Below are positions 10,515 to 34,741 of a DNA stretch of 50,242 nt, in pieces. The DNA lies in contig JBDLJU010000002.1 in the NCBI GenBank assembly GCA_039714215.1, positions 1 to 50,242 of the forward strand, read 5' to 3'. Position 1 is the first letter of the stretch. Each line of letters opens with the position of its first letter. Position numbers and translations under genes: made by a program. Below the pieces are notes generated by a model that made no database searches, was not told the DNA's origin, and saw nothing but the letters and a program-made list of their open reading frames with translations. The stretch comes from Chloroflexota bacterium (GTDB lineage: Bacteria; Chloroflexota; Anaerolineae; Anaerolineales; UBA11579).

Positions 10515-11733
10515 TCCCCCGCTGCCGGCCCGCAGTGATTGCGAGAACCACCCCCATCGCAAATGAGGCGGCAGCAAAAAAGGTCAACATTCCTCGCGGT
10601 TCGACTCTGAAACTGTCCAGGAAAATCCCGGTAAGCAGCACCGAAGTCGAGTTCGCCAGGGTGAACAGCCCAAGGTCAATCGAGAACACTCTCCCCAGGA
10701 ACCGGTCCGGCACCTGGTACTGGATCAACACATTGCTGTAAGTCCAATTGATTGAAACTCCCATCATGCGGACCGCCGCACCCACGCAAACCACCCACAG
10801 CGATGGCGCCAGGGCAAAAATGATCCAACCCAGGGGGATCAGTAAATAGCTTTTCTGGATCAGCCCGCGCAGCTGCCCCGAAGTTGTCCCGCTGAAAACC
10901 CTGGCAATCAGCGGGCCGATGATCGAGCCCAGCCCGGCCGCCGCGAACATGATTCCCAGAGAGGTAGCCCCCTCCTCCCCCAGCGGGAAGTAGCGCTCAG
11001 CAAAAACGACCATGAGGATATCCCCGCTGCCAATCTGCCCGATGGACTTGATCATTACTAAAAAGCCCATCCCCCGTTCCTTAACCACATACTTAAAACC
11101 ATCAATCAAATCACGGAACCCGCTCGTTACAGCCTGCGTTTCAACCGCGGCCTGGTCATACTTCACCCGGAGCACCAGAACCGCAGAGACCAGGAAGGTC
11201 CCTGAGTCAATAACCAGGGCGGCTTCAGCGCCGAACAACCCGGCAACCACACCCCCGGCAGCGGCGCCCAGCGCCAGCATCGCAGACCAGGTAATGCTGC
11301 TGAGCACGTTGGCGGTGACCAGCTCTTCCTCGCCTTCCACCAAACCAGGCAAGATCGCCGAGGAGGCGGGCTCAAAGAAAGAAGCCACAATAAACTGCGC
11401 CACGGTGAGCGCGTAGATCAACCAGACCCGCTCGGGGCGGTCGACGAACAAGAAGCTTAGTACGATCCCGGCGCGAAGCACGTCGCTGGCGAACATCACC
11501 CACTTGCGGTTGACCCGGTCGGCGAGCACCCCCGCCAGCGGGCCGAGGAAAAAGCGCGGCAGCGTTTTAGCGATCAGTATCCAGCTGATCGCCAGATCTG
11601 TTTCAGTGTAGCGGTTGACGATCATCACACTGGCGATCGTGTTGAACCAATCCCCCAGCAGGCTGACCACCGAGGCAAACCACAGGTTGCGAAAACCTGG
11701 GCGCTTCTTAAGTAATTCGAGATATTCTTTCAT
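10492..11733 (-). CDS. MFS transporter (MFS_3 / EntS-like efflux type)
   Basis: 413 aa with about 12 TM helices. The N-terminus FRNLWFASVVSLLGDWFNTIA is typical of this MFS subfamily. Confidence 0.75.
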   Translation of the reverse strand: MKEYLELLKKRPGFRNLWFASVVSLLGDWFNTIASVMIVNRYTETDLAISWILIAKTLPRFFLGPLAGVLADRVNRKWVMFASDVLRAGIVLSFLFVDRPERVWLIYALTVAQFIVASFFEPASSAILPGLVEGEEELVTANVLSSITWSAMLALGAAAGGVVAGLFGAEAALVIDSGTFLVSAVLVLRVKYDQAAVETQAVTSGFRDLIDGFKYVVKERGMGFLVMIKSIGQIGSGDILMVVFAERYFPLGEEGATSLGIMFAAAGLGSIIGPLIARVFSGTTSGQLRGLIQKSYLLIPLGWIIFALAPSLWVVCVGAAVRMMGVSINWTYSNVLIQYQVPDRFLGRVFSIDLGLFTLANSTSVLLTGIFLDSFRVEPRGMLTFFAAASFAMGVVLAITAGRQRGTKKTGEA

Positions 11734-11748
11734 CTGGAGGTCTGGGTG

Positions 11749-12264
11749 TCAGTCAAGCCAGTGAGCACACAAATTATACGACTGAAGCAGCGCGCGGGTA
11801 TCCGCTTCGATAGTATCCCCATTGACCAGCACTTGATGCGGGATGAGCATCTCCTCCCAATAATCGTTCATGTACTCATACACTTCGGGGGTGATTGGGT
11901 TTCCCTGTGTGCTGCGGTCGTACAGCCGCGCTTTCAGGAGGAACTCATCCGCAGTTTTGACCCACACAAAACGGATGTCTGGCTGGAAACATTCGTAAAT
12001 CGTCTGGCGGAACTGCTCCTGGTAAATCCCCTGGCTGACCACGAAGTTGTTTGAACGCTTTTGAAAGCCGAAAATATCCGAGATCACCCGGTCATAATAC
12101 CTGGTCATGTCCAGCTCATGGAACGTGCGCGTATGGATCGCCCCCAACATTTTTTTATCAAAGTGAATATCGGCTTCTACATGAGAGATGCCGCAGTGCT
12201 CCTCGATTAAATTCCCCACGTAGGATTTTCCGGAACCCCAGGTGCCGATCAGAAAGATAATCAT
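11749..12264 (-). CDS. P-loop kinase-like protein (AAA_33 / gluconokinase-shikimate kinase-like fold)
   Basis: 171 aa with an N-terminal Walker A, IIFLIGTWGSGKSYVG. Substrate cannot be inferred. Confidence 0.5.
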   Translation of the reverse strand: MIIFLIGTWGSGKSYVGNLIEEHCGISHVEADIHFDKKMLGAIHTRTFHELDMTRYYDRVISDIFGFQKRSNNFVVSQGIYQEQFRQTIYECFQPDIRFVWVKTADEFLLKARLYDRSTQGNPITPEVYEYMNDYWEEMLIPHQVLVNGDTIEADTRALLQSYNLCAHWLD

Positions 12265-20663: not shown

Positions 20664-21332
20664 TTAGCTTTTAATACGAACCGGAGCCCAACGCCAAATC
20701 CCCAATCCCAACACAAAAGTGAATACCCCAACGAAGGTGAAGGCATCCTGCCAAAAGCGGATCGGGAATAAGCGGATCAAGGTATCCGAATATAAGAACA
20801 GCCAGCTGTCCCCTTCAAAAAAGAGATGGTGGAAGCTGGTGAAAACCTGATTGAAATTCAAGAAAACCAGGAATACCAGCGTGCCCAGCAGCACCACAGT
20901 AAATACCCCCCCCACCGAGAGCATTTTTCGGAAATCATTCCACCATCCCCCGAACCAGGCCCAGGCGGCTAAACCCGCAAACACTCCCAGGCTCCAATAC
21001 CAGCCCTTCAGCACGGATTGGGTCAGAACCTTCACGTCGACCATATGGCGAAGCTCACGATCGTTGTATGCGGGGGTGCCGTCGGCAAACGAAACCTCCT
21101 CCAGGAAAGTAATATCCTCAGCATTGAGCAGATACGCCAATGCAAACGAAGCCATCCCCAGGCGTTCTTCCTGGCTCATGCCATAATTATCTTCCGGGAA
21201 ATACGGCATGCCGTACTCTACCGTGACAAAAGTGTCGGTGAGCAGCATCCGCACCCCGGTGAGCAGCAGAATAAAGAGCAGCAGTATCGCCACCACTACC
21301 TGGAGAATATTTTTTAGAATTTTGTTGTCCAT
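20664..21332 (-). CDS. TIGR01906/DUF1461-family integral membrane protein (family of the lipoprotein intramolecular transacylase Lit)
   Basis: 222 aa. Layout is one TM helix, a ~90-aa loop containing ELRHMVDVKVL, then three TM helices with FHHLFFEGDSWLF. Its start overlaps the upstream gene's stop by 1 nt at 21332. Confidence 0.55.
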   Translation of the reverse strand: MDNKILKNILQVVVAILLLFILLLTGVRMLLTDTFVTVEYGMPYFPEDNYGMSQEERLGMASFALAYLLNAEDITFLEEVSFADGTPAYNDRELRHMVDVKVLTQSVLKGWYWSLGVFAGLAAWAWFGGWWNDFRKMLSVGGVFTVVLLGTLVFLVFLNFNQVFTSFHHLFFEGDSWLFLYSDTLIRLFPIRFWQDAFTFVGVFTFVLGLGIWRWAPVRIKS

Positions 21333-22885
21333 TATTTTAGTTCCTGATAATCACCGGAAAAGACATAGGTGAGCACCATCCGGTTGACCACCCATTCGAT
21401 CGGCGCTTTGTCGTCTGTAAATACAATTGTTGGTCTGGGCAGCGGTTGGTAATTGACCGCAGTCCGCTCAATCGCCGTGACCAGCAGCGGATGCACGCCA
21501 GGCTGGACGATCAGCTCCCCGTAATTTTGCACCAGGTTCTCAAGCGAAGTTGGCTGAATCGTAGCGTAGACCATCGAGTTAAAGGTATAGGGAATATCCA
21601 TCACATGGATGCTGGGATAAACCTGCGCGAGGGTGGTTACCAGGGCATCGATCAGGCTGCGGTCGTTGTTGGAGCGCCCCACATTGATCACCAGCACGCC
21701 ATTTTCGGTGAGGTGCTCACGGGTGACTTCAAAAAACTCTACTGTGGTGAGATGCCAGGGAATATATGGCGGCCGGTAAGCATCGATCCCGATTAAGGAG
21801 TATTGATATTCGCTGTGGGCCAACCCCCAACGGCCATCGGCGGCGACGGCATTCAGATTGGGCATCGTCATCCCGAAGTACTCCTGCCCGACGGCGATGA
21901 TCGCCGGATCAATTTCATAGCCATCGATCGGGATTTCTCCAAACACGGCTGTGGCCTGCCGGGCAGTTGTCCCCGCGGCCAGACCAATAATTGCGATCCG
22001 TTCCACATCCTCGGGTTTGTACCCGGGGGAATTAAAAAAAGGGCCAACCAGGAACTGGCTCCACGGCCCAGCATAATCCAGGACCTGCGGGTGATACATC
22101 GAGTGCACCCCCTGCCCATCATTCAAGCGCAGCATCACATACTCGTTCCTCTCCACAACTTCAATGTAATTGTAGGAGGATTCCTGTTCAAATACCTGAC
22201 CTTCAGTAGTTTTTAACGGTCCGCTGGCCCACAGCCAGACAAAGGCCGCCAGCAGCAGCGGCATCCACAGCCAGCGAAGCGCCTGCTTCCAGCCCTCTGA
22301 TTTCGCCATCCCGAACAATGCCACCGCCATCAGGTAGCCGCTCATGATCACAAAGGTATAAGTGGTCCCCACCAGGGGAATGAAAAGCAAGACTGGTAAA
22401 AACGTCCCGATGAAGGATCCCAGGGTCGAGGTGGCGTAGATCCGACCAGAGGTTTTCCCTGCCTCGTCGGCATCCGTGATCGCCAATCTGATCGCAAACG
22501 GGGACATCGTGCCAAATAATGTGATCGGGATGATGAATAAGATCATCACTGTGGCAAAAGAGCCAAACAGCACGCCGAGTTCCAGGCTATCAAATGCGCT
22601 CGCAGCAAAACGGAGCACTGGCTTGGATGCCAAAGGCACGACCCCCGCGGTAAATGCTCCAAGCAGCATGATTAGAAAGAAGGTTTTGTAGTTTGGGTGT
22701 TTATCCGCCAATCTGCCCCCCACGAAATAACCAGCAGTCAGGTAAATCAAGATCAACCCAATGATGCTCGACCAGACCAGGTTGCTGGTGCCAAACACGT
22801 TCCCAAGCAATCGTTCAGCCGTCATTTCAACTGCCAATGTCACCAGACCAGAGGAAAATACAGAAAAATATAAATAACGCCTCAA
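21332..22885 (-). CDS. fused MFS-like membrane domain / spermidine synthase-like protein
   Basis: Track start is TTG 22915. AAAGGAGAA followed 8 nt later by the TTG at 22883-22885 gives MRRYLYFSVFSSGLVTLAVEM. The C-terminal methyltransferase-fold region carries IAIIGLAAGTTARQ and GYEIDPAII. Confidence 0.7.
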   Translation of the reverse strand: MRRYLYFSVFSSGLVTLAVEMTAERLLGNVFGTSNLVWSSIIGLILIYLTAGYFVGGRLADKHPNYKTFFLIMLLGAFTAGVVPLASKPVLRFAASAFDSLELGVLFGSFATVMILFIIPITLFGTMSPFAIRLAITDADEAGKTSGRIYATSTLGSFIGTFLPVLLFIPLVGTTYTFVIMSGYLMAVALFGMAKSEGWKQALRWLWMPLLLAAFVWLWASGPLKTTEGQVFEQESSYNYIEVVERNEYVMLRLNDGQGVHSMYHPQVLDYAGPWSQFLVGPFFNSPGYKPEDVERIAIIGLAAGTTARQATAVFGEIPIDGYEIDPAIIAVGQEYFGMTMPNLNAVAADGRWGLAHSEYQYSLIGIDAYRPPYIPWHLTTVEFFEVTREHLTENGVLVINVGRSNNDRSLIDALVTTLAQVYPSIHVMDIPYTFNSMVYATIQPTSLENLVQNYGELIVQPGVHPLLVTAIERTAVNYQPLPRPTIVFTDDKAPIEWVVNRMVLTYVFSGDYQELK

Positions 22886-23029
22886 ATTAACTTCTCCTTT
22901 GATTGTTTCGGTCAAACGGTTGGATTATATCCTACTTAATTCGCAAATTCTGCGTTTTTTAGTGCATAATAGAAGGGAGGTTGAACGCGCGCTCACTGAC
23001 AGGTTCAAAAAGAGAGTAAACCAACCACG

Positions 23030-23584
23030 ATGAAAAATCTAAACTACAAACCTTACCCGGTCTGCTACACGCCAATGGATAGTTCCCTTCTGGGGAGGAT
23101 TTGGATCGCGGCGCGTGAAAGTGGTGTGGTATTTCTAGACTTCAGTGAATCCGAAGCCGGCTTTATTGCCATCCTCAGTGAGTATCTGGAGAATTTCAAA
23201 GGTGAACCACAGCTCCGCCTCGACCCGACCAGCCTTTCGCCGTACCTGGAAACCCTGAACGCGTATTTTGATCACAAAACCCCGATTCCAGGTGATTTTC
23301 CTTTAGAAACTGCCTGCCTGACCGATTTCCAATGCGATGTGCTCAAACTCGTCCAGGCAATCCCTTTTGGCACGGTGGCTACATACGGTGATCTCGCCGA
23401 TAAGCTTTCCAATCCCAATGCCTCCCGAGCAGTCGGGCAGGTGCTCCGCCGCAACCCGCTGCCGATCATTATCCCCTGCCATCGGATCGTGAAAGCAGGC
23501 GGAAATATTGGGGGATATGGGGGCATTTTAGGGAGTGAGCGAAAAGTCGCCCTCCTCAAGCATGAAGGCGTGATTTTAGCCTAA
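23030..23584 (+). CDS. ogt: methylated-DNA--protein-cysteine methyltransferase
   Basis: 184 aa with the IPCHRIV active site and ATYGDLA. Confidence 0.9.
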   Translation: MKNLNYKPYPVCYTPMDSSLLGRIWIAARESGVVFLDFSESEAGFIAILSEYLENFKGEPQLRLDPTSLSPYLETLNAYFDHKTPIPGDFPLETACLTDFQCDVLKLVQAIPFGTVATYGDLADKLSNPNASRAVGQVLRRNPLPIIIPCHRIVKAGGNIGGYGGILGSERKVALLKHEGVILA

Positions 23585-23709
23585 AAACCAGCTTTTTCAC
23601 CATCATAATTTTGTCATGGGGTTGGTACTATTGTAAGATTGTTGCCCCCTTCTTTATCTAATATAATACCGTTAACAAAATTTGATTTTATTGGTATTTA
23701 AGGTGATTT

Positions 23710-23946
23710 ATGATTTCAACCGTAGTAACTGCATCGACTGCCTCAATAGCTACTAACATAACAGGGCCCCTGACCGTTATTGGTGTGGTCTTATTAATTG
23801 CTGTTCTGATTCAAAAAGAGTTAATTGGCTCAAGTGAGTCCGCAATCAGCAAGCGCATCAATCAAGTATTGAATATCGCTGTGCCCCCACTGGTCTTATC
23901 ATTTATTGGCTTGGTTGTTGTCAAAGTGATGACCTTCTTTAACTAA
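23710..23946 (+). CDS. small two-TM membrane protein, unknown function
   Basis: 78 aa. AAGGTGA lies upstream and a terminator downstream. AT-rich like the adjacent island. Coding status is not independently supported. Confidence 0.45.
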   Translation: MISTVVTASTASIATNITGPLTVIGVVLLIAVLIQKELIGSSESAISKRINQVLNIAVPPLVLSFIGLVVVKVMTFFN

Positions 23947-23967
23947 GTATACTACCCAGAAATATTG

Positions 23968-23997
23968 AGAGCTCCGGGCTCCCCGAGCTCTTTTTTT
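23968..23997. terminator. rho-independent terminator between convergent genes
   Basis: agagctccggg-ctc-cccgagctct followed by T7. Confidence 0.65.
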
Positions 23998-24035
23998 AAT
24001 CGAACGTATTTCTAATATAAAAACAGCAAGCTGCT

Positions 24036-24941
24036 CTATATTAATGGACTAATCCAATTGAGAATATAATCAATAAGCTGATTAAAACTCATATCTCCTA
24101 TAAGGTGAGGGAACACCAGGAGCAAACCGATATTGGTGAGCCCATGTGCGATTGAAACTCCCAGGAGGGAACCCGAGGAATTTGTTACCAACCCAAATAA
24201 GATCGCTACCCCGAAAACAAACAGCACATCAGCGATGGAGCCATAACCAACATGAAGTACCGCAAACAAAATTGCGCTGAAAGTAATCCCATACCGCCCG
24301 TAAACTGTGATCGCCGCCTGCTGGATCAAACCTCGAAAGAGGACCTCCTCCAATACCCCGGTGAAAATTATCAGCACGAACGCAGGAACCAGCATCGCCT
24401 CAATCGTGAATTCTGGGACAACAGGTGCAGGTTTCAGAATATAATACTCCCACAACCCCAGTGGAACTCCGACAACACCGAACAACAATTGAAAAGGGAG
24501 TTTCCCTAAATTGATCCCCAGTCGTTTGGCAGAGATCCTGGAAAACCGGTTAGCAAAAAACATGCCAATATAAACCAACACGCCAACCCAGAAATACGAT
24601 AACAGTGGATCTGGTTTCTTATCTTGAGCAAGTTTTAAGCTGGCGAGGGCAACCGGTAAAGATAAACTAATCACCCGCATCAGCGGGGCGACAGAAAGGG
24701 TGAGATACAATCTTCGAAAACGGATGGAATTGTCCAACGCACCGTGGATCATCAAAGCGACCAATACAATACTGTGCAGGATCAGCCCAAGGGACGGAGC
24801 CCGCAAATTGGTTAACACCTCCGCAACGATCAGCAATTGTAAGTAAAATAAAGGGGTGAAGTTGGCACCCTCAGGGAGTTTAAAATATTCGCCAAAAATG
24901 GCGAACCGACCTTGATTCGATCCTGAATCGTCTATCATCAT
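24036..24941 (-). CDS. CPBP-family intramembrane glutamic endopeptidase (CAAX protease/Abi type)
   Basis: 301 aa with EEVLFRGLIQ, FAVLHV and AHGLTN motifs in successive TM helices. Its start overlaps the upstream stop (TGATG at 24941). Confidence 0.8.
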   Translation of the reverse strand: MMIDDSGSNQGRFAIFGEYFKLPEGANFTPLFYLQLLIVAEVLTNLRAPSLGLILHSIVLVALMIHGALDNSIRFRRLYLTLSVAPLMRVISLSLPVALASLKLAQDKKPDPLLSYFWVGVLVYIGMFFANRFSRISAKRLGINLGKLPFQLLFGVVGVPLGLWEYYILKPAPVVPEFTIEAMLVPAFVLIIFTGVLEEVLFRGLIQQAAITVYGRYGITFSAILFAVLHVGYGSIADVLFVFGVAILFGLVTNSSGSLLGVSIAHGLTNIGLLLVFPHLIGDMSFNQLIDYILNWISPLI

Positions 24942-25762
24942 CAGTTAAGATCCTCTTCCCCCGATTCAATAACAGTTACCCAGGATGTAAGCTGACGGTA
25001 GGGAAAGTCACAACCTTCACATGAGAGGTAAATCTTGACTTTCAGGTTTTCCCCTATAGAATCCAACGTGATCATCAATTTGTCCTCCCACTGGGCGCCA
25101 TCTGGGACTAGAACCGATTCAATATGACCGACCACTCCGGCCTCAGTCAAGGCAAACACACTGTAATTCATTCCTTCACCCTCATGATTTTCTATGCCCA
25201 CATTGATTTCAAAAGGGGAATTGACCTCAACCTCGGAGACATAATCTGCAGCCCTGCCCTCCATTCCGAGGATATAAAACTCGGTGAACTCAGCAGTAGT
25301 TTCCTCTGTCTTTCCCCAAAACCAGGAGAAGGATATAAAGATCAGGAAGAGTGCAATCAAAAACGAAACCACCAGGACTGTTTCAGATTTTCCTCGCTTC
25401 AACAAATTTGGAATATTGGAAGTTTTAATATCTTGTTTATGAAACAATCTGATACCCATTGAAATCAGGCCAAGGATATTTAGCAGATACAGCACAAATT
25501 GGAGCGATTGTCTTGAAATGCCGAAGAAAGAGAGCAGCAATAGGGTCAAACCTGAGATCACTACACTCAAACCGAAGCTGGTCGGATACTTCAGCTGTTC
25601 AGTAAAAGGAAATTTTTCTGCGAACATCAAATTTAATAAGAAATACCCTGGGGCAAAAAAGAGAGAAATGAAAGCTGCACTAACATTTAACGCTACTCCC
25701 AGATCTAAAAACCAGTTCAGATTGATCAGGATTAATAGGAATAAATCAAAAACAATCCACAT
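24941..25762 (-). CDS. DUF1616-like membrane protein (four N-terminal TM helices plus beta-rich C-terminal domain)
   Basis: 273 aa. FYILGMEGRAADYVSEVEVNSPFEINVGIENHEGEGMNYSVFAL resembles the DUF1616 core as I recall it from archaeal proteins. Confidence 0.5.
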   Translation of the reverse strand: MWIVFDLFLLILINLNWFLDLGVALNVSAAFISLFFAPGYFLLNLMFAEKFPFTEQLKYPTSFGLSVVISGLTLLLLSFFGISRQSLQFVLYLLNILGLISMGIRLFHKQDIKTSNIPNLLKRGKSETVLVVSFLIALFLIFISFSWFWGKTEETTAEFTEFYILGMEGRAADYVSEVEVNSPFEINVGIENHEGEGMNYSVFALTEAGVVGHIESVLVPDGAQWEDKLMITLDSIGENLKVKIYLSCEGCDFPYRQLTSWVTVIESGEEDLN

Positions 25763-25791
25763 ACTACCCGGCTCCTACATTTACATTCATC

Positions 25792-27621
25792 TCAATCATT
25801 GTCTCTCCATGCCCATAATGTAAAATCTCCCGATTGGTAAACTCGGTTCCAGCTGGGATCATTATCTAGTAACTCAAAATCCTCCGGTGTAAACAAGCCG
25901 CCAGTGGTCCACAATTCAGAATAGTATGCAGCTCCATACCCAGTCAGGAACAGGTATTCAGGATCTTCAAAGCCCTCACCATTTGCCTCGCTATATCCAA
26001 AATGCGGGGGAGGAACTTTCACTCTCCAGCTTTCGTTCCCCTGGAGGAGAGCCGCAATTTCACCAATTGGCATCAAACCTCGAAAAATCCGTTCCCGTGC
26101 TGAAATTGAGTAAATGTTCCCTGGCTCGTCACTCGCATATTCTAGAAAATACTCGGCACCTGCAGCCCGCGCATATGTGTACTGATTGTTGGGCTGACCA
26201 ATTATCGAAGAGAAAGATACATTAAAAACCCCAATGATTCCAACTGCAATCGTTGCGGTGGAAAAAATTACGAAGATTAATGTCCGAATATTTTTTTTGA
26301 TGCTGTTCTTTTCATCCATGATCTCAAAGATAAGCGGCCCAATAATCAGGGGAGCCAAAAATACCGCAAAATTTAAGTATCTAATTGGATTTGAAGTTAT
26401 GATATCCCGGAATAAGGAAGAAACCGCTAGACTCAAAAAGAATATCATAAAAACTGGAAACACAACCAGATCACTTCTCAGCTGGTTCCACTTCCAATTC
26501 CTTCCAATTAAATAAACTGCAACACATATCAAAGCAATCAATACAATCCCCCCCCCAGACCCATATGTAAAAACTATCAGAGAAAGAATCTTTGAAATTT
26601 CTAAGCTCGCTCTTTCACTGGCGGAGACAAAAGATTCAAGCGAATTAAATCCTAGAATCCCATCACGGATCACGGACACAAGATGGATGATTGTTTTACC
26701 AAATGCCCTGAAAGTTGAAAACCACAAAAACCATGATGCCAATAAAGTCAGAAAACCAGGATAGATCGGTTGTAAGACCCTATTAATTTTACTGAAAAAT
26801 GATTTCTGTTCTCTTTGTCCAGATTTGATTAGGGGAATCAGGTAAATGAGCAAGAAAACCAGTGGACTAACTACAGCCAGAGGATGAAGGTAAGGCAAAA
26901 ACAGCAGGACCAGGATAAATATGATCACCTCTTTCCAGGTCCGATCAGTCTGCCTGGTTTTCAGGAACCAGGCAAGAAAATAAAGCAGCATATAGATCGA
27001 ATACTGCACAGGGAAATACATAGACTGGTAGTTGGAATAGATCAACAAACTTGACAAAGCTAAAAGAATTCCACGCACACCCGGTCGAGAATCATAGACC
27101 CAGGCTAAAAAGAAAACATTCATCACCCCGATAAGATAGAAGAATATCGTAGTGAAATGCATAGAGTTGGGAACACTTTGCCCAGAGATTATAGAAAAAA
27201 CCGCGGTAATCAAATGCGAGAATGGATAAAAGTCTTCCTTAAATGAGTGTCCCGTTTGCCTGATTGTCAGGATCATGCTGTGGTGATTTGGCGAATCCCA
27301 CTGGCCGTTAAACATATAATCCCGGAAATACGGCAGCGAAATTATGAACAAATTTACCATCACGATTAATAATAATCCCAACCACCATCGGTAGCTGTTT
27401 GGACGCTGGAAAACCACCAACAAAATCTGGACAAGTCCTAAAACTAACACACTGATGATCCCTGCCCAAAATAATGGAGGGTAGGCTGAATATAAACTGC
27501 TCTCGTAAGAACCATCACCAATTGATTTGCTCGCCAGGACGATGACCCCGGCGAAAATCACCATTCCGAGGATAGCTAGAAAATCAACTTTGCTGGTTTT
27601 TGGTTGGTTTTCGCTCTGCAA
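25792..27621 (-). CDS. large polytopic membrane protein with C-terminal soluble tail; candidate GT-C-type glycosyltransferase or glycan polymerase
   Basis: 609 aa. TTG start 10 nt after AGGAG. About 13-14 hydrophobic segments by eye, then a ~140-aa tail ending NRVYQSGDFTLWAWRDND. No STT3 WWDxG motif seen. Confidence 0.45.
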   Translation of the reverse strand: MQSENQPKTSKVDFLAILGMVIFAGVIVLASKSIGDGSYESSLYSAYPPLFWAGIISVLVLGLVQILLVVFQRPNSYRWWLGLLLIVMVNLFIISLPYFRDYMFNGQWDSPNHHSMILTIRQTGHSFKEDFYPFSHLITAVFSIISGQSVPNSMHFTTIFFYLIGVMNVFFLAWVYDSRPGVRGILLALSSLLIYSNYQSMYFPVQYSIYMLLYFLAWFLKTRQTDRTWKEVIIFILVLLFLPYLHPLAVVSPLVFLLIYLIPLIKSGQREQKSFFSKINRVLQPIYPGFLTLLASWFLWFSTFRAFGKTIIHLVSVIRDGILGFNSLESFVSASERASLEISKILSLIVFTYGSGGGIVLIALICVAVYLIGRNWKWNQLRSDLVVFPVFMIFFLSLAVSSLFRDIITSNPIRYLNFAVFLAPLIIGPLIFEIMDEKNSIKKNIRTLIFVIFSTATIAVGIIGVFNVSFSSIIGQPNNQYTYARAAGAEYFLEYASDEPGNIYSISARERIFRGLMPIGEIAALLQGNESWRVKVPPPHFGYSEANGEGFEDPEYLFLTGYGAAYYSELWTTGGLFTPEDFELLDNDPSWNRVYQSGDFTLWAWRDND

Positions 27622-27775
27622 AATAATTGAACTCCTGATTTAAGTCTTCCTCTTGACAATTTAAATTTATTGTTACCTGAGCGGCTCACGCGAGCGGACC
27701 AGTCAAGCTGGAACAAACATTTATCTAACAATCATATCAAATCAAACAGAAAAGTATTCCTCTCTTTTGCTTTAG

Positions 27776-28975
27776 CTAGTATGTCCCAAGTTCATCAATA
27801 ATTTGTTTATACTTGGTCACGGATGTCTCGAGGCTGTATTTCTCAACAAGAATTGCCCGAGCATTCTGAGAAATTTTTTCCAGGTCAACGCCTTCTTCAG
27901 TTGCCGATTCAAGCCCCTCAGCAATTTCCTCAGGAGTGATTCCTTTGAAAAGAAACCCAGTTTCACCTTCAATGATCATGTCCGTGATTCCACCAACATC
28001 TGTCGAAATCACCGGTGTCCCACAGCTGAAGGCTTCCATGATTACATTTGGCACACCTTCGTTTTTCGAGGGCAGGGCCATCAATTTCATCTTGTTTAAA
28101 TAATCCTGGACTTCTTCATATTTCACCCAATCGAGCCTGGTGATCCTGCTGCTCCACCTGCTTTCCGAAATGATTTTATCAACCTGCTCAGCAAGCTCTC
28201 CAACCCCAATCAAAAGGAAGTGATAATCAGGGTGCTTTTCGAGAAAAATAATAATTCCTTGCACCAATTCGAGGACACTTTTATCATTTGTCATTCGGCC
28301 TAAGAAGCCAACAGTGTTGTCTCGCTGCGATATCGGCACGATTTGCTGAAATAACCCCGCATTCCCAAAAAACTGAGCCCATTGCCGAATTTTTTTCTTC
28401 CAGATCGATAAAGGGTCATTCTTAAGATATTTCATACTTCCTACAGTGATCAGATCAGCAAAGAAGTAGTTCCATTGGGTTAGCAGGATGATAACAAATT
28501 TACCAAATCCTCCGTAAATATTCCTGGCAGGTTCAACATCTGATCCAGCCACATGATAAATGTACTTTTTCCCCAACAGTTTTGCTACCAGGATCGGCAG
28601 CTGGTAATAACTGCCGAAATAATTGGTCACAATCCCAATTTCACGACGAAGCCTGATAATTACATACGCCATTTTCACCTGGATAGCAACTAGCTTGGCA
28701 AACCAGGCTATCGCGGAAAATATTAAGGGACGGATGTCACGCAAATGATGAATCCGAATCCCAATATCGATAGGGGTGGTATTTGGATGCAGCGAGATGT
28801 TTTCTGGAATTTTACCGCTAATAAAAAAAGAGGAATATCCTGATTCTCCAATCACGTAATTTAATTTTGGAGGTACAGAATAAATATTGTCCGTCGCATA
28901 TGGAAAGACTAAAACGGCAATCTTCTTTCCTTTTAAATCACATCTACTCATAATTTTCCAATTCTTATTATCCAA
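27776..28975 (-). CDS. GT4-family (GT-B fold) glycosyltransferase
   Basis: 399 aa. EGVPNVIMEAFSCGTPVISTDVGGITDMIIEGETGFL (EX7E region). TTG start 7 nt after GAGGA. Confidence 0.8.
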   Translation of the reverse strand: MDNKNWKIMSRCDLKGKKIAVLVFPYATDNIYSVPPKLNYVIGESGYSSFFISGKIPENISLHPNTTPIDIGIRIHHLRDIRPLIFSAIAWFAKLVAIQVKMAYVIIRLRREIGIVTNYFGSYYQLPILVAKLLGKKYIYHVAGSDVEPARNIYGGFGKFVIILLTQWNYFFADLITVGSMKYLKNDPLSIWKKKIRQWAQFFGNAGLFQQIVPISQRDNTVGFLGRMTNDKSVLELVQGIIIFLEKHPDYHFLLIGVGELAEQVDKIISESRWSSRITRLDWVKYEEVQDYLNKMKLMALPSKNEGVPNVIMEAFSCGTPVISTDVGGITDMIIEGETGFLFKGITPEEIAEGLESATEEGVDLEKISQNARAILVEKYSLETSVTKYKQIIDELGTY

Positions 28976-28994
28976 AGCGGATTCCTCGTAAAAA

Positions 28995-29939
28995 TTACTT
29001 TTTAAGGTAGCGTAATCGAAGCTGATTTATTTGAGCTTGAAAAAATTCCAGGATCATGTTTATGAGAGCTTTCCCAAGCTCGCTGTACCTCAAGGTTGTC
29101 TTTCGGCCTTCAAATTTCAGCGGATAGCCCAAATATTCCAACATGTCTCCAGTCAAAGATTCGAACACGTGGATTTGCCGGGAAGACAACTTGTGTTCCC
29201 ACGCAGAGATTCTGCTGGAATCTATTGCCCGCCCCACAAGTTTGTGATCCTTTTGCGAGTACATGGGTAATGTTAACCCACTTGCCTGCAGCATTTTGGC
29301 TTCAAATTGAAGCCCGAGGAATTCGCATAATCTTTTAATTTCGCGCTCTGGATCTGATAGAAGATCCTCATATCGGATTTGAATGATTTCTCTCTCATTC
29401 AAAAGCTTTTCTGCCGCCAGGCCATAAGCAAGATTGTTTACCCAAAAATTTGCAGCGCGATCAATCGTTCGTGGTCCCCAGGAAACCGAGAGCAGCGAAG
29501 ACGCTACTGCCCGCCCATCACGGACCAGATGAACAAACTTCGCCTTAGGGAAAATTTCAAGAAGTTTTCTAACATGTTTAATATTTGCCGGCACATGATC
29601 GATCCAAAGGAGATTTTCAGTCTCTCCGGTTTGATCTGCATATTCACCAATGATAAAATTTATCATCTCCGAATACGGAGCTTCAGACTTTGGGAATTCT
29701 CTAAGCTGAATATTCCACAGCTGAAAGCGTGGATGTTCCTTGATTTTTTGCAGAATTTCCTGGCTCGTTAAATCTGCTCCCTTCCGTTCTTTACCCAGAG
29801 AAAGATAGCCGTCCAGTACAAACTGTGCTTCAGGTACACAAACTACTTGTTGGTGCGAGCCCAAGATCGCACCTAATAAGGTCGTTCCGCTTCTGTCGCA
29901 ACCTCCGACGAACACAGGATCAGCTGAAAATTTTGCCAT
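28995..29939 (-). CDS. sulfotransferase family protein
   Basis: 314 aa. A 5'-PSB-like loop GGCDRSGTTLLG and a 3'-PB-like VRDGRAVASS. Its start lies 20 nt inside the 3' end of the flippase gene. Confidence 0.75.
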   Translation of the reverse strand: MAKFSADPVFVGGCDRSGTTLLGAILGSHQQVVCVPEAQFVLDGYLSLGKERKGADLTSQEILQKIKEHPRFQLWNIQLREFPKSEAPYSEMINFIIGEYADQTGETENLLWIDHVPANIKHVRKLLEIFPKAKFVHLVRDGRAVASSLLSVSWGPRTIDRAANFWVNNLAYGLAAEKLLNEREIIQIRYEDLLSDPEREIKRLCEFLGLQFEAKMLQASGLTLPMYSQKDHKLVGRAIDSSRISAWEHKLSSRQIHVFESLTGDMLEYLGYPLKFEGRKTTLRYSELGKALINMILEFFQAQINQLRLRYLKK

Positions 29940-31209
29940 AAATATTCCCTAGTTTATTTTTATTATAATAGATGAAAAATAGTCCTAGAATGCATAGGTT
30001 GGCCCATACCCAGCCAAAACCAATCGATATCAAGCCCTTCGAAGCAAAAAGCAGCGGGAAAGAAATTGAAATAAGCGCCAACAATGCCGAGCTGCCCACC
30101 AGCCAAACTTTCTCTTTACGTACTTTTAGTCCTGAGAAAAACAAATTATTTACACTCGCAATTGGGGCAGCAATGATGATCACCCTCAGCAGCTCAATTG
30201 CGTCTAGGGTATATTCAAAACCAAAAAGGGACATGATAAATTCTGAAAATAGCAGTCCAAGGAAGGAAAGCACTCCGGTAATTGCCATGGCATAAACAGC
30301 TGCCCGCATCCAAATTTTCTCAAACCGTTCTGAATCGTGCGATCCTTCGGCAAAAGCCGATCCTGCCAATGCAATCCCCGGGCTGATCAGCAGAGCGCCA
30401 ATCATCCAGACAATATAAACAAAAGCAGAATCTTCTCCTCCCCACAATTCGAAAGCAAGAGGTGGAATTAACCAGGTAGGGATTTTATACAAATTGTTCG
30501 CCAAGAAATTACTGATTGAGAAAATTAAGATTTCTTTTTTATTCTCGATTGGCTGACTGTTTACTTCTCTGTACTGCGGAAAAATTTGTTTAACGAAAAC
30601 CACAAAGCTAAGTGTTATTGCAATCAGATAAGCAAAAATATTCGAGAGAATAATTCCATAAATACCCAACCCAACCAGAACAAATACCAAAACTAACCTG
30701 ACTAGATTGAATAAGAAAGTTTGCTGAAGAGTAAATTTCGATTCTCTAAAACTTAGAAATATCTGGCTGAAAAGATTAAAAATCGCCAATAGGGAAACAG
30801 CAGCCAACAAACAGATTATAAAATACAGATCATTGAAGCTGTCCAGCAGAGAAAAATTCCAAACTCTCATTACCAGGTAATACAGGACCGACAAGCCCAT
30901 ACTGACCATTATGCTAACCTTGAGTGCATAATTAATCAGCTCTTTTGGATTTTTTACATCCGATAAATATCTAACCAGGCCTGCACCCAGACCCAGACTT
31001 GAAAACCCGCTGAGGAAACCTACCACAGAGATCATTGATGAAGAAACACCGATGATTTCTGCTGAGAATAAATAAGATGCGAAGATCCAAAATGCATACC
31101 CGACAGCTCCCGCAAGCAGGTTGGCAGCAAAGATGTATACCGCATTCGAGATGAAATGACTGGAAAGAAAGGATTGATAAAATTCCTTGATTTTCTGCTG
31201 AATGCTCAT
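29920..31209 (-). CDS. oligosaccharide/polysaccharide flippase (Wzx-like, MOP superfamily)
   Basis: 429 aa with about 12 TM helices. The N-terminus NAVYIFAANLLAGAVGYAFWIFASYLFSAEIIGV is typical of polysaccharide biosynthesis proteins. Confidence 0.65.
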   Translation of the reverse strand: MSIQQKIKEFYQSFLSSHFISNAVYIFAANLLAGAVGYAFWIFASYLFSAEIIGVSSSMISVVGFLSGFSSLGLGAGLVRYLSDVKNPKELINYALKVSIMVSMGLSVLYYLVMRVWNFSLLDSFNDLYFIICLLAAVSLLAIFNLFSQIFLSFRESKFTLQQTFLFNLVRLVLVFVLVGLGIYGIILSNIFAYLIAITLSFVVFVKQIFPQYREVNSQPIENKKEILIFSISNFLANNLYKIPTWLIPPLAFELWGGEDSAFVYIVWMIGALLISPGIALAGSAFAEGSHDSERFEKIWMRAAVYAMAITGVLSFLGLLFSEFIMSLFGFEYTLDAIELLRVIIIAAPIASVNNLFFSGLKVRKEKVWLVGSSALLALISISFPLLFASKGLISIGFGWVWANLCILGLFFIYYNKNKLGNIYGKIFS

Positions 31210-31257
31210 CTGATTACTTCGCCTTTTACGGTCTGCTTCACTTTAGCCGAAGATCTC

Positions 31258-32406
31258 TCATTTACTTCCGCTTTTTGGTAATAATTCTTGATATAGATTC
31301 AGCAGCTTTTTTGCCGATTTTTTCCAGGTAAAATTATTTGCGATTTGCTTTCTCCCCTTTACGCCCATTTTTTTACGAAGCTGGGGATTTTCAACCAGCT
31401 CCCTGATTTTTCCAGCCAATTCTGGGACATCATCGTAAGGCACCAAGAATCCGCTCACATTATCCTGGATCACCATTCTCACTCCGGGGTTGTTTGTCGC
31501 AATCGCCGGTAGACCACATGCCATCCCTTCGGCAACTGCCAGACCAAATGATTCGGCGATAGAGGGAATCACAACCAGGTTGCCAGCATTGTAATATTTA
31601 GGTAGTTGGTGATGTAGAATTCTACCGGAAAACTTAACTTTATCAGCTATACCTAGTTCCGACGCTCTAGACTGGTACTCTGTAAGCATTTCCCCGCCAC
31701 CAATCACAAGAAGTTTCAGAGCATCAATGTCACACAGTTTAGAAATTGCCTCCAACAAAAAAAACAAACCTTTATTGACATGCGCTCTATCCAACGAACT
31801 GACAAATAAAACAACCACATCCTTATTGGAAAAACCAAATTGTTCTCTGATCTTAGTGGATGCTAATCCGGGTTTGAAGGATTCCACATCCACACCGCTG
31901 GGCACCTCCACCAGCTGATCGCGTTTGTCTTTGAAAATCTTCTCGTAAAAAATAGAGGATTCGGCATGGTCAAATGAATTGAAAGTTATCCAGTCTGCTC
32001 GTTTGAACAGCAGAGGAGTAAAAATTTTCTGGTAAATCAAAAATAAAACGCCCTTCACACCTCTGCCGATCAAGTCATTATGATAGGTCACCACCAGAGG
32101 AACCTGATTTCTCACCAGATTGAGAAGAATTAATTCCGAACCAAAAATATACGGGTTATGCAAATGGACCAGGTCAAACCCCGAGAGTTTTAACAGGTCA
32201 GGGGTTAAAAAGGCGTTCTGGATGGACAGAAAGGAGTGAAAATAACAGTAAATACTCTGATCGTAGTCCTTTTGTGGGACACCTTTATCGGGAACAAAGA
32301 CCTCAACGTCCACACCAAGGTCTTGCAGTCCTTTTGCATAGTAATAGGCTACTGTCCCGGTTCCCTCGTTGAAGGGTGAATGGGCAACTACATGAGCAAC
32401 TCTCAC
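31258..32406 (-). CDS. GT4-family glycosyltransferase
   Basis: 382 aa with a GTG start (MRVAHVV). ESFGLAVAEGMACGLPAIATNNPGVRMVIQDNVSGFLV. Confidence 0.8.
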   Translation of the reverse strand: MRVAHVVAHSPFNEGTGTVAYYYAKGLQDLGVDVEVFVPDKGVPQKDYDQSIYCYFHSFLSIQNAFLTPDLLKLSGFDLVHLHNPYIFGSELILLNLVRNQVPLVVTYHNDLIGRGVKGVLFLIYQKIFTPLLFKRADWITFNSFDHAESSIFYEKIFKDKRDQLVEVPSGVDVESFKPGLASTKIREQFGFSNKDVVVLFVSSLDRAHVNKGLFFLLEAISKLCDIDALKLLVIGGGEMLTEYQSRASELGIADKVKFSGRILHHQLPKYYNAGNLVVIPSIAESFGLAVAEGMACGLPAIATNNPGVRMVIQDNVSGFLVPYDDVPELAGKIRELVENPQLRKKMGVKGRKQIANNFTWKKSAKKLLNLYQELLPKSGSK

Positions 32407-32463
32407 CTGGAAATTATTCTCCTCAAATCTAATGAAAATCCCATCAATAAATAACGATTCTCT

Positions 32464-33588
32464 CTACCCATTAATTTCTGATAAATAGCATTGTTCATAT
32501 TCATTGACCATTGTATCCCAATTAAAATCCTTCGCTTTGAGATAATCCAGATCCCCATTAAATACACGGACCACCCCTTCAGCAATCGCGGTGGCACTCC
32601 CAGCTTCAACCAATACAAAGTTGCCAAAAACCACCTCTGGAATGGATCCGGATGCTGAAGCGACCACAGGAACATCCAGGCTGCTGGCTTCAACCGTAGT
32701 AAACCCAAAACCTTCAGTGAGTGATGGGATCACGATACAATTAGATTGACTTAAAAAAGCGAACAGGTCTTTCCGGTCGGAGAACGTTGGAACAAGGGTT
32801 ACCTTATCAACTAACTTTTTTTCCCGAATTGCCAGCTTGATTTTCTCGTATTCTGCTGCAGGGCTTGAAGATAAGATCATCAGTAATTGTGATCCAGGAA
32901 TTTTTCTGCTGATTTCAGGTACAGCATCAACCAGATAATGGACCCCTTTCGTGACCCCTGGACGACCGTAATAAACATAATTGAAGTCCGCCTGTGAGAA
33001 CAGGTTGCTGAGTTCATTTTCGCTGGAGGGTTGGATTTCTTCTCCCTCCAAATCCACACCCGGATAAATTACTTGAACCTGACCTGCTTCCACTCCTGTC
33101 TGAATTAAATCGTTCTTCGTAGCATTAGAAATGCACACATGATGGTCATATGGCAAACTGACGATCATTTTTTCGATAAACTGATAAATAAATGATTTTC
33201 GTTTAGAGGCTAAAACAAATTCCCACCGCTCGCCTAATACCTCATGACAGGTGATCACAATCTTTGCCTTCCCAAAAAGAGAACCAAGATAAGCTGCTAA
33301 GGCCGAATAATTTGAACTGGTTTGAATGATCTCAAATTGAGAAACTTGTTTGATCAATCGCGGGATGCTTACCAGAGTAAATAAGAATGGATTTTCCGAA
33401 ATCGGCAATTTCACCCGCTCAACATCCACACCATGAATTCTTTCGTGTTTAGCCAATCCCGGTTTTCCTGAGGTGATAACCTTGACATAATGCCCCTTTT
33501 TAACCAACCCTTCAGCGAGTCTCTGAAATAACAATTCAGACCCACCAACATAGGGATAATAATTGGCTAAAACAAATAATATATTCAT
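32464..33588 (-). CDS. GT4-family glycosyltransferase
   Basis: 374 aa. MNILFVLANYYPYVGGSE and EGFGFTTVEASSLDVPVVASASGSIPEVV. Confidence 0.8.
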   Translation of the reverse strand: MNILFVLANYYPYVGGSELLFQRLAEGLVKKGHYVKVITSGKPGLAKHERIHGVDVERVKLPISENPFLFTLVSIPRLIKQVSQFEIIQTSSNYSALAAYLGSLFGKAKIVITCHEVLGERWEFVLASKRKSFIYQFIEKMIVSLPYDHHVCISNATKNDLIQTGVEAGQVQVIYPGVDLEGEEIQPSSENELSNLFSQADFNYVYYGRPGVTKGVHYLVDAVPEISRKIPGSQLLMILSSSPAAEYEKIKLAIREKKLVDKVTLVPTFSDRKDLFAFLSQSNCIVIPSLTEGFGFTTVEASSLDVPVVASASGSIPEVVFGNFVLVEAGSATAIAEGVVRVFNGDLDYLKAKDFNWDTMVNEYEQCYLSEING

Positions 33589-33609
33589 TTAGAAAGTTAT
33601 TTGAGATTG

Positions 33610-34575
33610 TTATAGTTTTCGGTTTTTATAAAATTCATTCAGCAAACCTCGCACGGAGTGCAGCGTGATGCCGGTTGAGATCATCACTGCCCCGATAATC
33701 GCCAGCATTACGCTGATCATTGCCGTACCAACCGCGATCTGGGTTGTCCTGCGGAAAATTTCCACCACCCGCAGGCCAGCAAAAAAGCCACCACCGAGCA
33801 GTAAGGCTCCTGGCATCCCAAAGAACAGCAGCGGACGATATTGTCCCACCAGCTGTATGATCCCGGCAAGCACATTCATGCCCTGCCGCCACACCGAGCG
33901 TTTCGGTTTGTCCAGGTATTGGATCGTTACCGGTACTTCTTTTACCCGTAAATCTAATTCCTTGGCAATAAACTGCATTTCCGATTCGACCGAAAATCCT
34001 TTTGAGCTAAAGGCGAATTCTTTCAGTGCTTTCTCAGAAAAAGCACGGTAGCCATTCTGGGAATCCGAAGATTGCGTGCCTGAAAATGATTTCGTGAATA
34101 AATTAAAAAACCAATGCCCAATGACCCGATGCTTCGGCACTTCTGATTTTTCGTCGAGGTAGCGGGAGCCAATCACAAGATCAGCACTGCCGTCGAGAAT
34201 TGGTCCAACAATCTCGGGGAGATCATCTACCTGATGCTGTCCATCCGCATCGAGCATCACGACTGCTTCAGGTGAAAACTTTTGCGCTTCCTGGAAGCCG
34301 CGGTTGAGGGCAACACCTTTTCCCTGGTTCCCCTGATTTCTGACCACCAGCGCTCCGGCTGTGCGAGCTATCTCACCAGTATTGTCCGTTGAGCCATCAT
34401 CAACAACGATGATGTTTGAGACGTATTTTTCCAAACCCAGAATTACGCTCCCTATAAATCGAGCTTCATTGTATGCAGGGATAACGACCACGATATTTTT
34501 TCCGAGCAGCAGCTCATATCGTTTCATTTCTTCGGGATCTAAAACAAATACTGATGAATCTGGTACTGCAGCCAT
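33610..34575 (-). CDS. GT2 polyprenyl-phosphate glycosyltransferase (GtrB/DPM1/ArnC-like) with two C-terminal TM helices
   Basis: 321 aa. VVVIPAYNE, VDDGSTDNT, LDADGQH. C-terminal TM pair LLFFGMPGALLLGGGFFAGL and AMISVMLAIIGAVMISTGI. AGAGG lies 5 nt upstream of the ATG. Confidence 0.8.
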   Translation of the reverse strand: MAAVPDSSVFVLDPEEMKRYELLLGKNIVVVIPAYNEARFIGSVILGLEKYVSNIIVVDDGSTDNTGEIARTAGALVVRNQGNQGKGVALNRGFQEAQKFSPEAVVMLDADGQHQVDDLPEIVGPILDGSADLVIGSRYLDEKSEVPKHRVIGHWFFNLFTKSFSGTQSSDSQNGYRAFSEKALKEFAFSSKGFSVESEMQFIAKELDLRVKEVPVTIQYLDKPKRSVWRQGMNVLAGIIQLVGQYRPLLFFGMPGALLLGGGFFAGLRVVEIFRRTTQIAVGTAMISVMLAIIGAVMISTGITLHSVRGLLNEFYKNRKL

Positions 34576-34741
34576 AACTACCTCTTTCTTTACTACGCCT
34601 CAATTTTATTATACCTGCCGCAATCAGCCATCTGCTTTCAATTTCGTGATGGTTATTACACAAAACTGTCATGGTCGGGGGAAATATCCGCCAAATGCTG
34701 ACAATTTTCCGGTTAAGAGATAGAATAACCAGCTTCACCCA

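Follow-up and report, generated by a model that had tools for sequence, protein, structure and literature searches.

A DUF1616-centred set of envelope genes, with a predicted GT-C-fold glycosyltransferase and a CPBP protease, in a low-GC glycan island of an Anaerolineales genome

Introduction

Loci of the oligosaccharyltransferase type, such as the pgl and agl clusters, combine glycosyltransferases, a flippase and a GT-C enzyme and hold no polymerase. In streptococci, the GT2 glycosyltransferase GtrB and the GT-C enzyme PgtC2 attach sugar to Ser/Thr-rich stretches on the outward side of membrane proteins, shielding these from proteolysis (PMC11092751). HVO_2173, a DUF1616 protein of Haloferax volcanii, was reported by Schulze et al. 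as an AglB-dependent membrane N-glycoprotein with a non-canonical N-glycopeptide, LVRGEPASLVLGVGNQE, that rests on two spectra (PMC8241124), and Makarova et al. in 2015 tied DUF1616 to a putative arCOG01314/MoxR/vWA secretion system in archaea and predicted an envelope context for the family, naming MMP0360 of Methanococcus maripaludis as one of its representatives, in a text in which the terms CAAX and CPBP do not occur (PMC5898192). Here we describe a locus from a Chloroflexota bacterium of the Anaerolineales (assembly GCA_039714215.1, contig JBDLJU010000002.1, positions 1 to 50,242, a stretch of 50,242 nucleotides (nt) hereafter called the window) in which a gene for a polytopic protein of 609 amino acids (aa) with a predicted GT-C fold is followed by genes for a DUF1616 protein and for a CPBP (Rce1-like) glutamic intramembrane protease. 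Across the loci compared, two units prove robust, namely GT-C with DUF1616 in an Anaerolineales subclade and DUF1616 with CPBP, often joined by a Thr-rich mini-protein, across domains of life, and DUF1616 is the hub that connects them.

Results

The three genes are all encoded on the reverse strand and comprise, in reading order, the gene for a membrane glycosyltransferase that is predicted to have a GT-C fold and belongs to an as yet unnamed family (25792–27621, 609 aa with a TTG start in our open reading frame (ORF) list, the public gene call being 590 aa with its start at M20, position 27564), the DUF1616 gene (24941–25762, 273 aa, PF07760) and the gene for a CPBP protease of a DUF1616-linked subfamily (24036–24941, 301 aa, PF02517). 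A gap of 154 nt (27622–27775) lies 5′ of the first gene, 29 nt separate it from DUF1616, and the DUF1616 and CPBP genes overlap by 1 nt as TGATG at 24941; ORF list and sequence thus bear out the coordinates and spacings of the initial annotation. Its proposal that the genes form a sub-operon of their own is not supported and cannot be established, because the 154-nt gap contains no promoter-like site and because in the relatives L001 and L172 the upstream glycan gene is only 3–28 nt away. Promoter and terminator sites are not enriched across the region, and an Rfam search of the island gave no match. Facing the CPBP gene on the forward strand is a further ORF (23710–23946), which encodes a 78-aa two-helix mini-protein with the Thr/Ser-rich N-terminal tail MISTVVTASTASIATNIT; a GC-rich hairpin with a T-run at its 3′ side on the forward strand (23967–23990) lies between these convergent genes.

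To survey gene linkage, local hidden Markov models (HMMs) built from the window proteins and their relatives were searched across the best DUF1616 loci, 74 of which (53 archaeal and 21 bacterial) have enough downstream sequence to be usable. A CPBP gene of the same subfamily follows DUF1616 directly and on the same strand in 27 of these 74 loci (18 of 53 archaeal, 9 of 21 bacterial), with full-length matches (about positions 25–266 of 287 in the model); the gap between the two genes is −40 to +71 nt in all but one of these loci, L032, where it is 383 nt. In 21 of the 74 loci (12 archaeal, 9 bacterial) a gene for the mini-protein is present within 4 kb. In Clostridia the genes are ordered DUF1616, CPBP, mini-protein, often followed by a gene for an SLH-domain protein (840–920 aa) or a geranylgeranyl-reductase-like flavoprotein; recurrent neighbours of the cassette also include GT2 and GT4 glycosyltransferases and MacB-type ABC components. 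In Methanoperedens (L016 11729–14432; L031 11783–14514; L041, L061 and L043) the DUF1616–CPBP pair is flanked by genes for an exosortase of the EpsH family, for an EpsI-like protein (DUF3485) and for a protein in which a sandwich of the DUF1616 type is joined to an S-layer domain of archaeal kind (PF07752).

The second linkage, that of a GT-C gene directly followed by DUF1616, recurs for the family members nearest to the window protein: in L001/L002 (54% identity, with a gap of 31 nt in L001), in L005, where the genes are frameshifted, and in L172/L173, which come from an Anaerolineales genome and have 29% identity and a gap of 3 nt, and on contig P0022 the two genes overlap, so that it spans 29–54% protein identity in Anaerolineales clusters. 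On the Methanobacteriota contig L071 all four families occur within approximately 10 kb. The families grouped in the initial annotation therefore do co-occur outside the window, GT-C with DUF1616 in three further Anaerolineales lineages, DUF1616 with CPBP in the 27 loci above and all together in L071; what does not hold is the fixed three-gene module, the genes instead forming two overlapping pairs that share DUF1616, alongside a fourth conserved gene that had been overlooked. The GT-C gene is a variable neighbour of DUF1616. Two other DUF1616 neighbours, of 537 aa (L006/L007) and 507 aa (L009/L010), were considered as members of the GT-C family but left out of it as remote relatives at best, with hhalign values of 64% and 90% that concern the N-terminal part only. 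No description of the four-gene association was found in the literature searched.

An AlphaFold2 model of the 609-aa protein is confident (predicted local distance difference test score (pLDDT) 92.6, predicted template modelling score 0.92) and has about 13 membrane helices followed by a soluble C-terminal domain at approximately residues 470–609. The top 17 Foldseek matches in the PDB are all GT-C enzymes, comprising ArnT, yeast and human STT3, AftA, AglB, AftD, DPY19 and EmbA/EmbB, each at a probability of 1.00 and mostly with query-normalised TM-scores of 0.40–0.51; among the 50 matches listed there is no Wzy or WaaL structure, nor a transporter with a comparable score. The confident model and the all-GT-C top matches support the GT-C assignment that had been suggested from the hydrophobic profile, and the two outcomes named beforehand as fatal to the initial proposal, a transporter or a plain Wzy polymerase, did not emerge from the fold search. 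As noted in the initial annotation, the WWDxG motif is missing, there being no WWD in the translation, and the protein has no STT3 match in Pfam or NCBIfam that would place it with STT3, AglB or PglB, no Pfam match to Wzy_C (PF04932) and only a sub-threshold score for DUF6541 (PF20176; 17.3 bits against a cut-off of 29), a model matched by only 11 of 60 members of its family at E ≤ 0.01 (best E 8.8e-10). Sequence and profile searches against the PDB sequences gave no match to a solved structure.

Word-index searches with the 609-aa protein retrieved only four relatives, and it was an exhaustive HMMER profile search that revealed the size of the family, with 2,198 representatives (clusters at 50% identity) at E ≤ 0.001 and 857 at E ≤ 1e-30, nearly all full-length at about 600 aa. 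Neither Pfam nor NCBIfam has a model that names this family. Scans of genome collections with the GT-C alignment returned a single locus each or contigs already known, two metagenome scans returned nothing, and our neighbourhood sampling centred on the GT-C gene accordingly covers 10 contigs. In a 60-sequence alignment Y39, D109, Y132, P133, H246 and R414 are invariant and a C-terminal HFGY motif is nearly so. D109 lies in the loop/helix of residues 100–132 that follows the third membrane helix of the model; by the positive-inside rule this loop would face outward, and D109 would then represent the conserved acidic residue near the N-terminus that is a feature of the GT-C superfamily. In UniRef, the family member of Methanolobus profundi is listed as [quoted passage not shown].

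The HMM check of the middle gene confirmed it as DUF1616, with a PF07760 match over residues 8–262 at 70.2 bits (E 2.2e-19), well over the Pfam gathering threshold of 31.6. The protein consists of about five membrane helices and an extracytoplasmic immunoglobulin (Ig)-like beta-sandwich, and it has the conserved motifs FxPGY, TEFYILG, NHE (part of a longer GIxNHE motif) and YRxLxLW in common with 37 relatives. The sandwich (residues 160–265), modelled from a 7-sequence alignment at a pLDDT of about 90, matches generic Ig-like domains such as CARDB, complement MG domains and carbohydrate-binding modules. The Asn of the H. volcanii peptide LVRGEPASLVLGVGNQE aligns with the near-invariant Asn of GIxNHE, N192 in the window protein. 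At least 575 relatives of DUF1616 emerged from a scan in which each species was represented by a single genome, and the best 80 loci divide into 55 archaeal (among them Methanoperedens, Methanobacteriaceae, Methanosarcinales and Thermoplasmata) and 25 bacterial ones (including Dehalococcoidia, Chloroflexia, Peptococcaceae/Desulfotomaculum and Aerophobetes). The view that DUF1616 is essentially archaeal is thereby refuted, the 25 belonging to Chloroflexota, Clostridia or Aerophobetes.

DUF1616 proteins of 900–1100 aa occur in Methanobacteriaceae (L022 7997–10804; L029 8033–10732; L050 6837–9725; L051 40–3342; L065 435–3677). Considered as possible fusions to a GT-C protein, these were ruled out as such and turned out to hold tandem DUF1616 modules: three to four N-terminal four-helix modules joined by long, charged, low-complexity linkers, with the Ig-like domain on the last module copy only. 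Shorter multi-copy DUF1616 proteins in L028, L057 and L071 have zinc-ribbon-like CxxC...CxCGG linkers.

The last gene is, as first annotated, a CPBP protease: it matches PF02517 (E 7.8e-15, 55.4 bits against a cut-off of 22.4) and has the motifs EExxxR, FxxxH and HxxxN intact as LEEVLFR, FAVLH and HGLTN. An identity with one of the named myxosortases was rejected, every named model scoring under its cut-off (MrtJ 39.6 against 75, MrtS 28.2 against 130, Mrt_core 26.2 against 100), and relatives of the window protein likewise fall below the cut-offs of the named myxosortases. The DUF1616 and mini-protein alignments contain no conserved Cys of the kind found in myxosortase sorting signals. In L006 a DUF1616-linked CPBP (10746–11858) carries a C-terminal XRE-type helix-turn-helix (HTH_31, E 3e-7) and has Gln for the His of FxxxH, which hints at a regulatory rather than purely proteolytic role for some of these proteins. 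Flavoproteins adjoin the cassette in five Clostridia loci (L012 12373–13596; L013 12105–13334; L032 3133–4338; L042 5428–6981; L054 4023–5228); those of L012, L013, L032 and L042 have an FAD_binding_3 domain in four of four cases and a geranylgeranyl-reductase catalytic domain in three of four. As CPBP proteins are related to the prenyl protease of the CAAX type, the cassette may have a link to prenyl lipids.

The mini-protein begins with MISTVVTASTASIATNIT, that is MISTV and then a Thr-rich run, and continues with two hydrophobic helices, the second of which holds the motif AVPPLVLSF, separated by a charged loop that contains KELIGS. Following the positive-inside rule, the loop is probably cytoplasmic and the Thr-rich tail outward. 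Homologues adjoin DUF1616 or CPBP in L001, L005, L006/7, L009–11, some ten Clostridia and many methanogens, with up to 15 Thr among the first 20 residues in the clostridial proteins. The mini-protein has no match in Pfam, NCBIfam or PADLOC, and the PADLOC defence search gave no match.

The four genes form one end of a horizontally acquired, low-GC envelope-glycan island at 23.6–34.7 kb of the window. Its GC content (41–44% in the 24–35 kb region) is below that of the flanks (52–57%), and it spans some 11 kb, 23585–34741, between the genes for MGMT, which ends at 23584, and alanyl-tRNA synthetase (AlaRS). The AlaRS shares 72% identity with its counterpart in an Anaerolineales genome, and its best 80 loci are all Chloroflexota; in none of these 80 do the module families lie near AlaRS. 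The site is empty, with MGMT only 0.2–1.5 kb from AlaRS, in L092, L094, L095 and L096, which are the closest four relatives among the Anaerolineales, and the approximately 11 kb between the two genes in the window are therefore an insertion. The metagenomic relatives L001 and L005 have a related island at the same MGMT/AlaRS site. On the other side of the MGMT gene lies a pair of reverse-strand genes (20664–22915), in which a fused gene similar to those of the major facilitator superfamily (MFS) and spermidine synthase (527 aa, NCBIfam NF037959, 182 bits) has a one-base overlap with the start of a gene of the Lit family (Lit being lipoprotein intramolecular transacylase), and this pair is kept beside MGMT in many Anaerolineales loci.

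The remainder of the island is likewise encoded on the reverse strand. It is headed by a GT2 glycosyltransferase (33610–34575), whose translation ends in the two hydrophobic helices described in the initial annotation and whose best NCBIfam matches are AglJ (TIGR04182, 155.8 bits against a cut-off of 325) and PpgS (125 bits against 370). This GT2 is a candidate polyprenyl-phosphate sugar transferase that would act as pathway initiator or as donor synthase. Two GT4 glycosyltransferases follow (32464–33588 and 31258–32406), each matching many GT4 NCBIfam models, all under cut-off, then a 429-aa polytopic Wzx-like flippase candidate (29920–31209; Pfam Polysacc_synt at 30 bits, cut-off 28.2, E 4.6e-7), a sulfotransferase (28995–29939; Pfam Sulfotransfer_3, E 1.4e-38) and, directly 5′ of the GT-C gene, a third GT4 (27776–28975; Pfam Glycos_transf_1, E 1.8e-29). 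Among the related clusters, L001, L005, L172 and contig P0022 have a sulfotransferase gene too, and in L003, L174, L175 and L177 the gene immediately 5′ of the GT-C family member is again a GT4. No initiator of the WecA/WbaP type (Bac_transf or Glycos_transf_4) is listed for the clusters of the window, L001 or L172, and the island encodes no small flippase of the GtrA/GtcA type, the 429-aa Wzx-like protein being present instead.

Discussion

The reading that we favour, tentatively and as one that may well turn out otherwise, is that a glycan, lipid-linked and probably sulfated, is transferred at the outward face to an acceptor of the envelope, and that this transfer is coupled to a maturation cassette that contains a protease. 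A short, probably sulfated oligosaccharide would be assembled on the cytoplasmic side with polyprenyl phosphate as its carrier, the GT2 initiating and the GT4s extending it; an oligosaccharide is implied by the three GT4s and the sulfotransferase, and initiation by the GT2 is suggested because this enzyme is AglJ-like and because no WecA/WbaP-type initiator is listed for the clusters of the window, L001 or L172. The Wzx-like protein would flip the lipid-linked glycan, which the GT-C protein would then use on the outer face as a terminal transferase. DUF1616 might act as a tightly coupled, stoichiometric membrane partner of the GT-C protein, either receiving the glycan itself or presenting an acceptor in the manner of an adaptor. 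The acceptor would most likely be an envelope protein, whether the DUF1616 ectodomain, the Thr-rich tail of the mini-protein or a protein of S-layer type, and the CPBP would process a membrane-anchored component of the same assembly. Consistent with such a pathway, the clusters in which GT-C family members occur hold glycosyltransferases and Wzx, most without Wzy_C, and thus have a layout like that of an oligosaccharyltransferase-type locus; the more distant members, most of them archaeal (L003, L174 and L175–L177), have a GT4 gene on one side and a Wzx-type gene on the other, in clusters rich in sugar-nucleotide genes and without DUF1616 or Wzy_C. Of the envelope or S-layer glycosylation and maturation system first proposed for these genes, the envelope theme is upheld by the SLH, exosortase/EpsI, S-layer-domain and glycosyltransferase neighbours, while glycosylation of a protein acceptor is something that we still infer.

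Several observations weigh against this reading. The activity and the acceptor of the GT-C protein are proposed here from fold and gene context, and the membrane domain of DUF1616 is poorly modelled (pLDDT 50–70). The glycosylation seen in H. volcanii depends on AglB and does not proceed via a member of the GT-C family, and its non-canonical site has the two spectra mentioned above behind it. In L172 (12636–14903) and P0022 a protein of 673–755 aa in which Wzy_C, a domain like that of O-antigen ligases and polymerases, is fused to TPR repeats (Wzy_C-TPR) occupies the position of the CPBP after DUF1616, in L001 a methyltransferase gene sits between DUF1616 and CPBP, and the distant GT-C members of L003, an uncultured archaeon, and L174, Methanolobus profundi, have no DUF1616, CPBP or mini-protein nearby. 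Finally, most DUF1616–CPBP cassettes have no GT-C of the window family within 10 kb, and the two linkages may therefore be separate functions that merely share DUF1616.

An alternative that we consider unlikely, yet the most serious of those weighed here, is that the GT-C protein substitutes for Wzy and polymerises Wzx-flipped units into a sulfated polysaccharide of the cell surface, with DUF1616 as co-polymerase or chain-length partner and with CPBP and mini-protein serving the envelope in some unrelated way. Six of the eight sampled cluster types indeed have GT4s and Wzx and no recognisable Wzy_C, some carry genes of capsule or exopolysaccharide type (UDP-glucose dehydrogenase, NeuB, CapK_C), and the tight coupling of DUF1616 to GT-C resembles that of Wzz with Wzy. 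We know, however, of no GT-C enzyme that polymerises repeat units en bloc; the fold search returned no Wzy or WaaL, L172 and P0022 carry their Wzy_C-TPR gene besides the GT-C gene, and the widespread linkage of DUF1616, CPBP and mini-protein beside S-layer genes is left unexplained.

It is improbable, to a somewhat greater degree, that the head GT2 supplies a polyprenyl-phosphate monosaccharide from which the GT-C protein adds a single sugar to a glycan or protein already at the outer face, after the models of GtrB/GtrC, CsbB/YfhO, GtrB/PgtC2, ArnC/ArnT and Haloferax AglD/AglR/AglS. The helix pair of the GT2 and its similarity to enzymes of the PpgS/AglJ/DPM type are typical of polyprenyl-phosphate sugar synthases, and the best fold matches of the GT-C protein include ArnT and AftA, which use monosaccharide donors. 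The RgtA/B/C/D-like name of one family member points the same way, as do the multicomponent GT2 and GT-C systems established in single-membrane bacteria (PMC8035078, PMC5836110, PMC11092751). Such a GT2 is, however, not consistently found beside members of the GT-C family, a GT2 that made the donor only would leave three GT4s and a Wzx without an initiating enzyme, and no GtrA-like small flippase is present.

More speculative still, and in our estimate quite improbable as it stands, is a broader proposal in which DUF1616, CPBP and mini-protein constitute an unrecognised envelope-assembly machine of archaea and single-membrane bacteria, a membrane component of which would be glycosylated and then processed by the protease so as to anchor or mature the surface layer. 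The glycosylated component would be the poly-Thr tail of the mini-protein or the Ig-like domain of DUF1616 with its conserved Asn, and in Anaerolineales the glycosylation would be supplied by the GT-C family, which would then be a new family of protein glycosyltransferases. That the three genes are mere neighbours in a mosaic island, with no joint function, is very improbable: the inserted methyltransferase of L001, the Wzy_C-TPR gene in the place of CPBP in L172 and the distant GT-C members without DUF1616 speak for it, but GT-C and DUF1616, like DUF1616 and CPBP, stay closely spaced or overlapping at protein identities of only 25–54% and in two domains of life, and a CPBP gene next to DUF1616 in 27 of 74 loci goes far beyond what the few CPBP genes of a genome would produce by chance.

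Whichever acceptor the proposed outward transfer may have, each part of the locus comes from a known superfamily (GT-C, Rce1-like protease, Ig-like membrane protein) and their combination was not found in the libraries or literature searched. The confident model allows an unnamed GT-C family of about 2,200 clusters to be annotated as outward-facing glycosyltransferases of archaeal and Chloroflexota glycan clusters. The cassette of DUF1616, CPBP and mini-protein, which ranges from methanogens to Clostridia, provides a concrete hypothesis for DUF1616, whose function has been unknown since the family was defined, and it may indicate that CAAX-type proteases of bacteria and archaea have a client system not recognised before. 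The island itself is a clear case of the insertion of envelope-glycan genes into an Anaerolineales genome.

Comparison with Known Systems

With the ArnT/STT3/AftA-like enzymes of the GT-C superfamily the window protein has in common a polytopic domain followed by an outward soluble C-terminal domain; it differs from STT3, AglB and PglB in lacking WWDxG and in having its own conserved C-terminal HFGY. As in the CsbB/GtcA/YfhO, GtrB/PgtC2 and Pgf systems (PMC5836110, PMC8035078, PMC11092751), a membrane GT2 and a GT-C protein are encoded in one locus of a single-membrane bacterium, and, as in systems of the GtrB/PgtC2 type, the window encodes a Ser/Thr-rich tail, which by its predicted topology would face outward, together with an associated protease. 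In contrast to the CsbB/GtrB-type systems, its flippase is of the Wzx and not the GtrA type and it has three GT4s and a sulfotransferase in addition, while DUF1616, CPBP and mini-protein are not part of those systems.

The Agl pathway of Haloferax volcanii (AglJ/G/I/E and AglB; AglD/AglR/AglS) resembles the window in its sulfotransferase and in AglJ, to which the head GT2 is similar, and in its layout, where a GT2 and further glycosyltransferases are joined by a Wzx-like protein and a GT-C enzyme, again without an initiator of the WecA/WbaP type; moreover, DUF1616 is itself a glycoprotein in that host. The host of the window is, on the other hand, bacterial, its GT2 scores far under the AglJ cut-off, its GT-C protein is not AglB/STT3 and no Agl model passed. 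The myxosortases (MrtX, MrtC, MrtP, MrtJ, MrtS and MrtA) and the window CPBP have an Rce1-like catalytic core and a genomic tie to genes for surface proteins in common, and the best NCBIfam matches of the window CPBP are MrtJ and MrtS; its partners, DUF1616 and a Thr-rich mini-protein, are in contrast not described for the myxosortases (bioRxiv 10.1101/2023.06.07.544157; PMC11980579). The earlier work that placed DUF1616 in an envelope context (PMC5898192) predates the links to GT-C and the mini-protein and the bacterial members that we report here.

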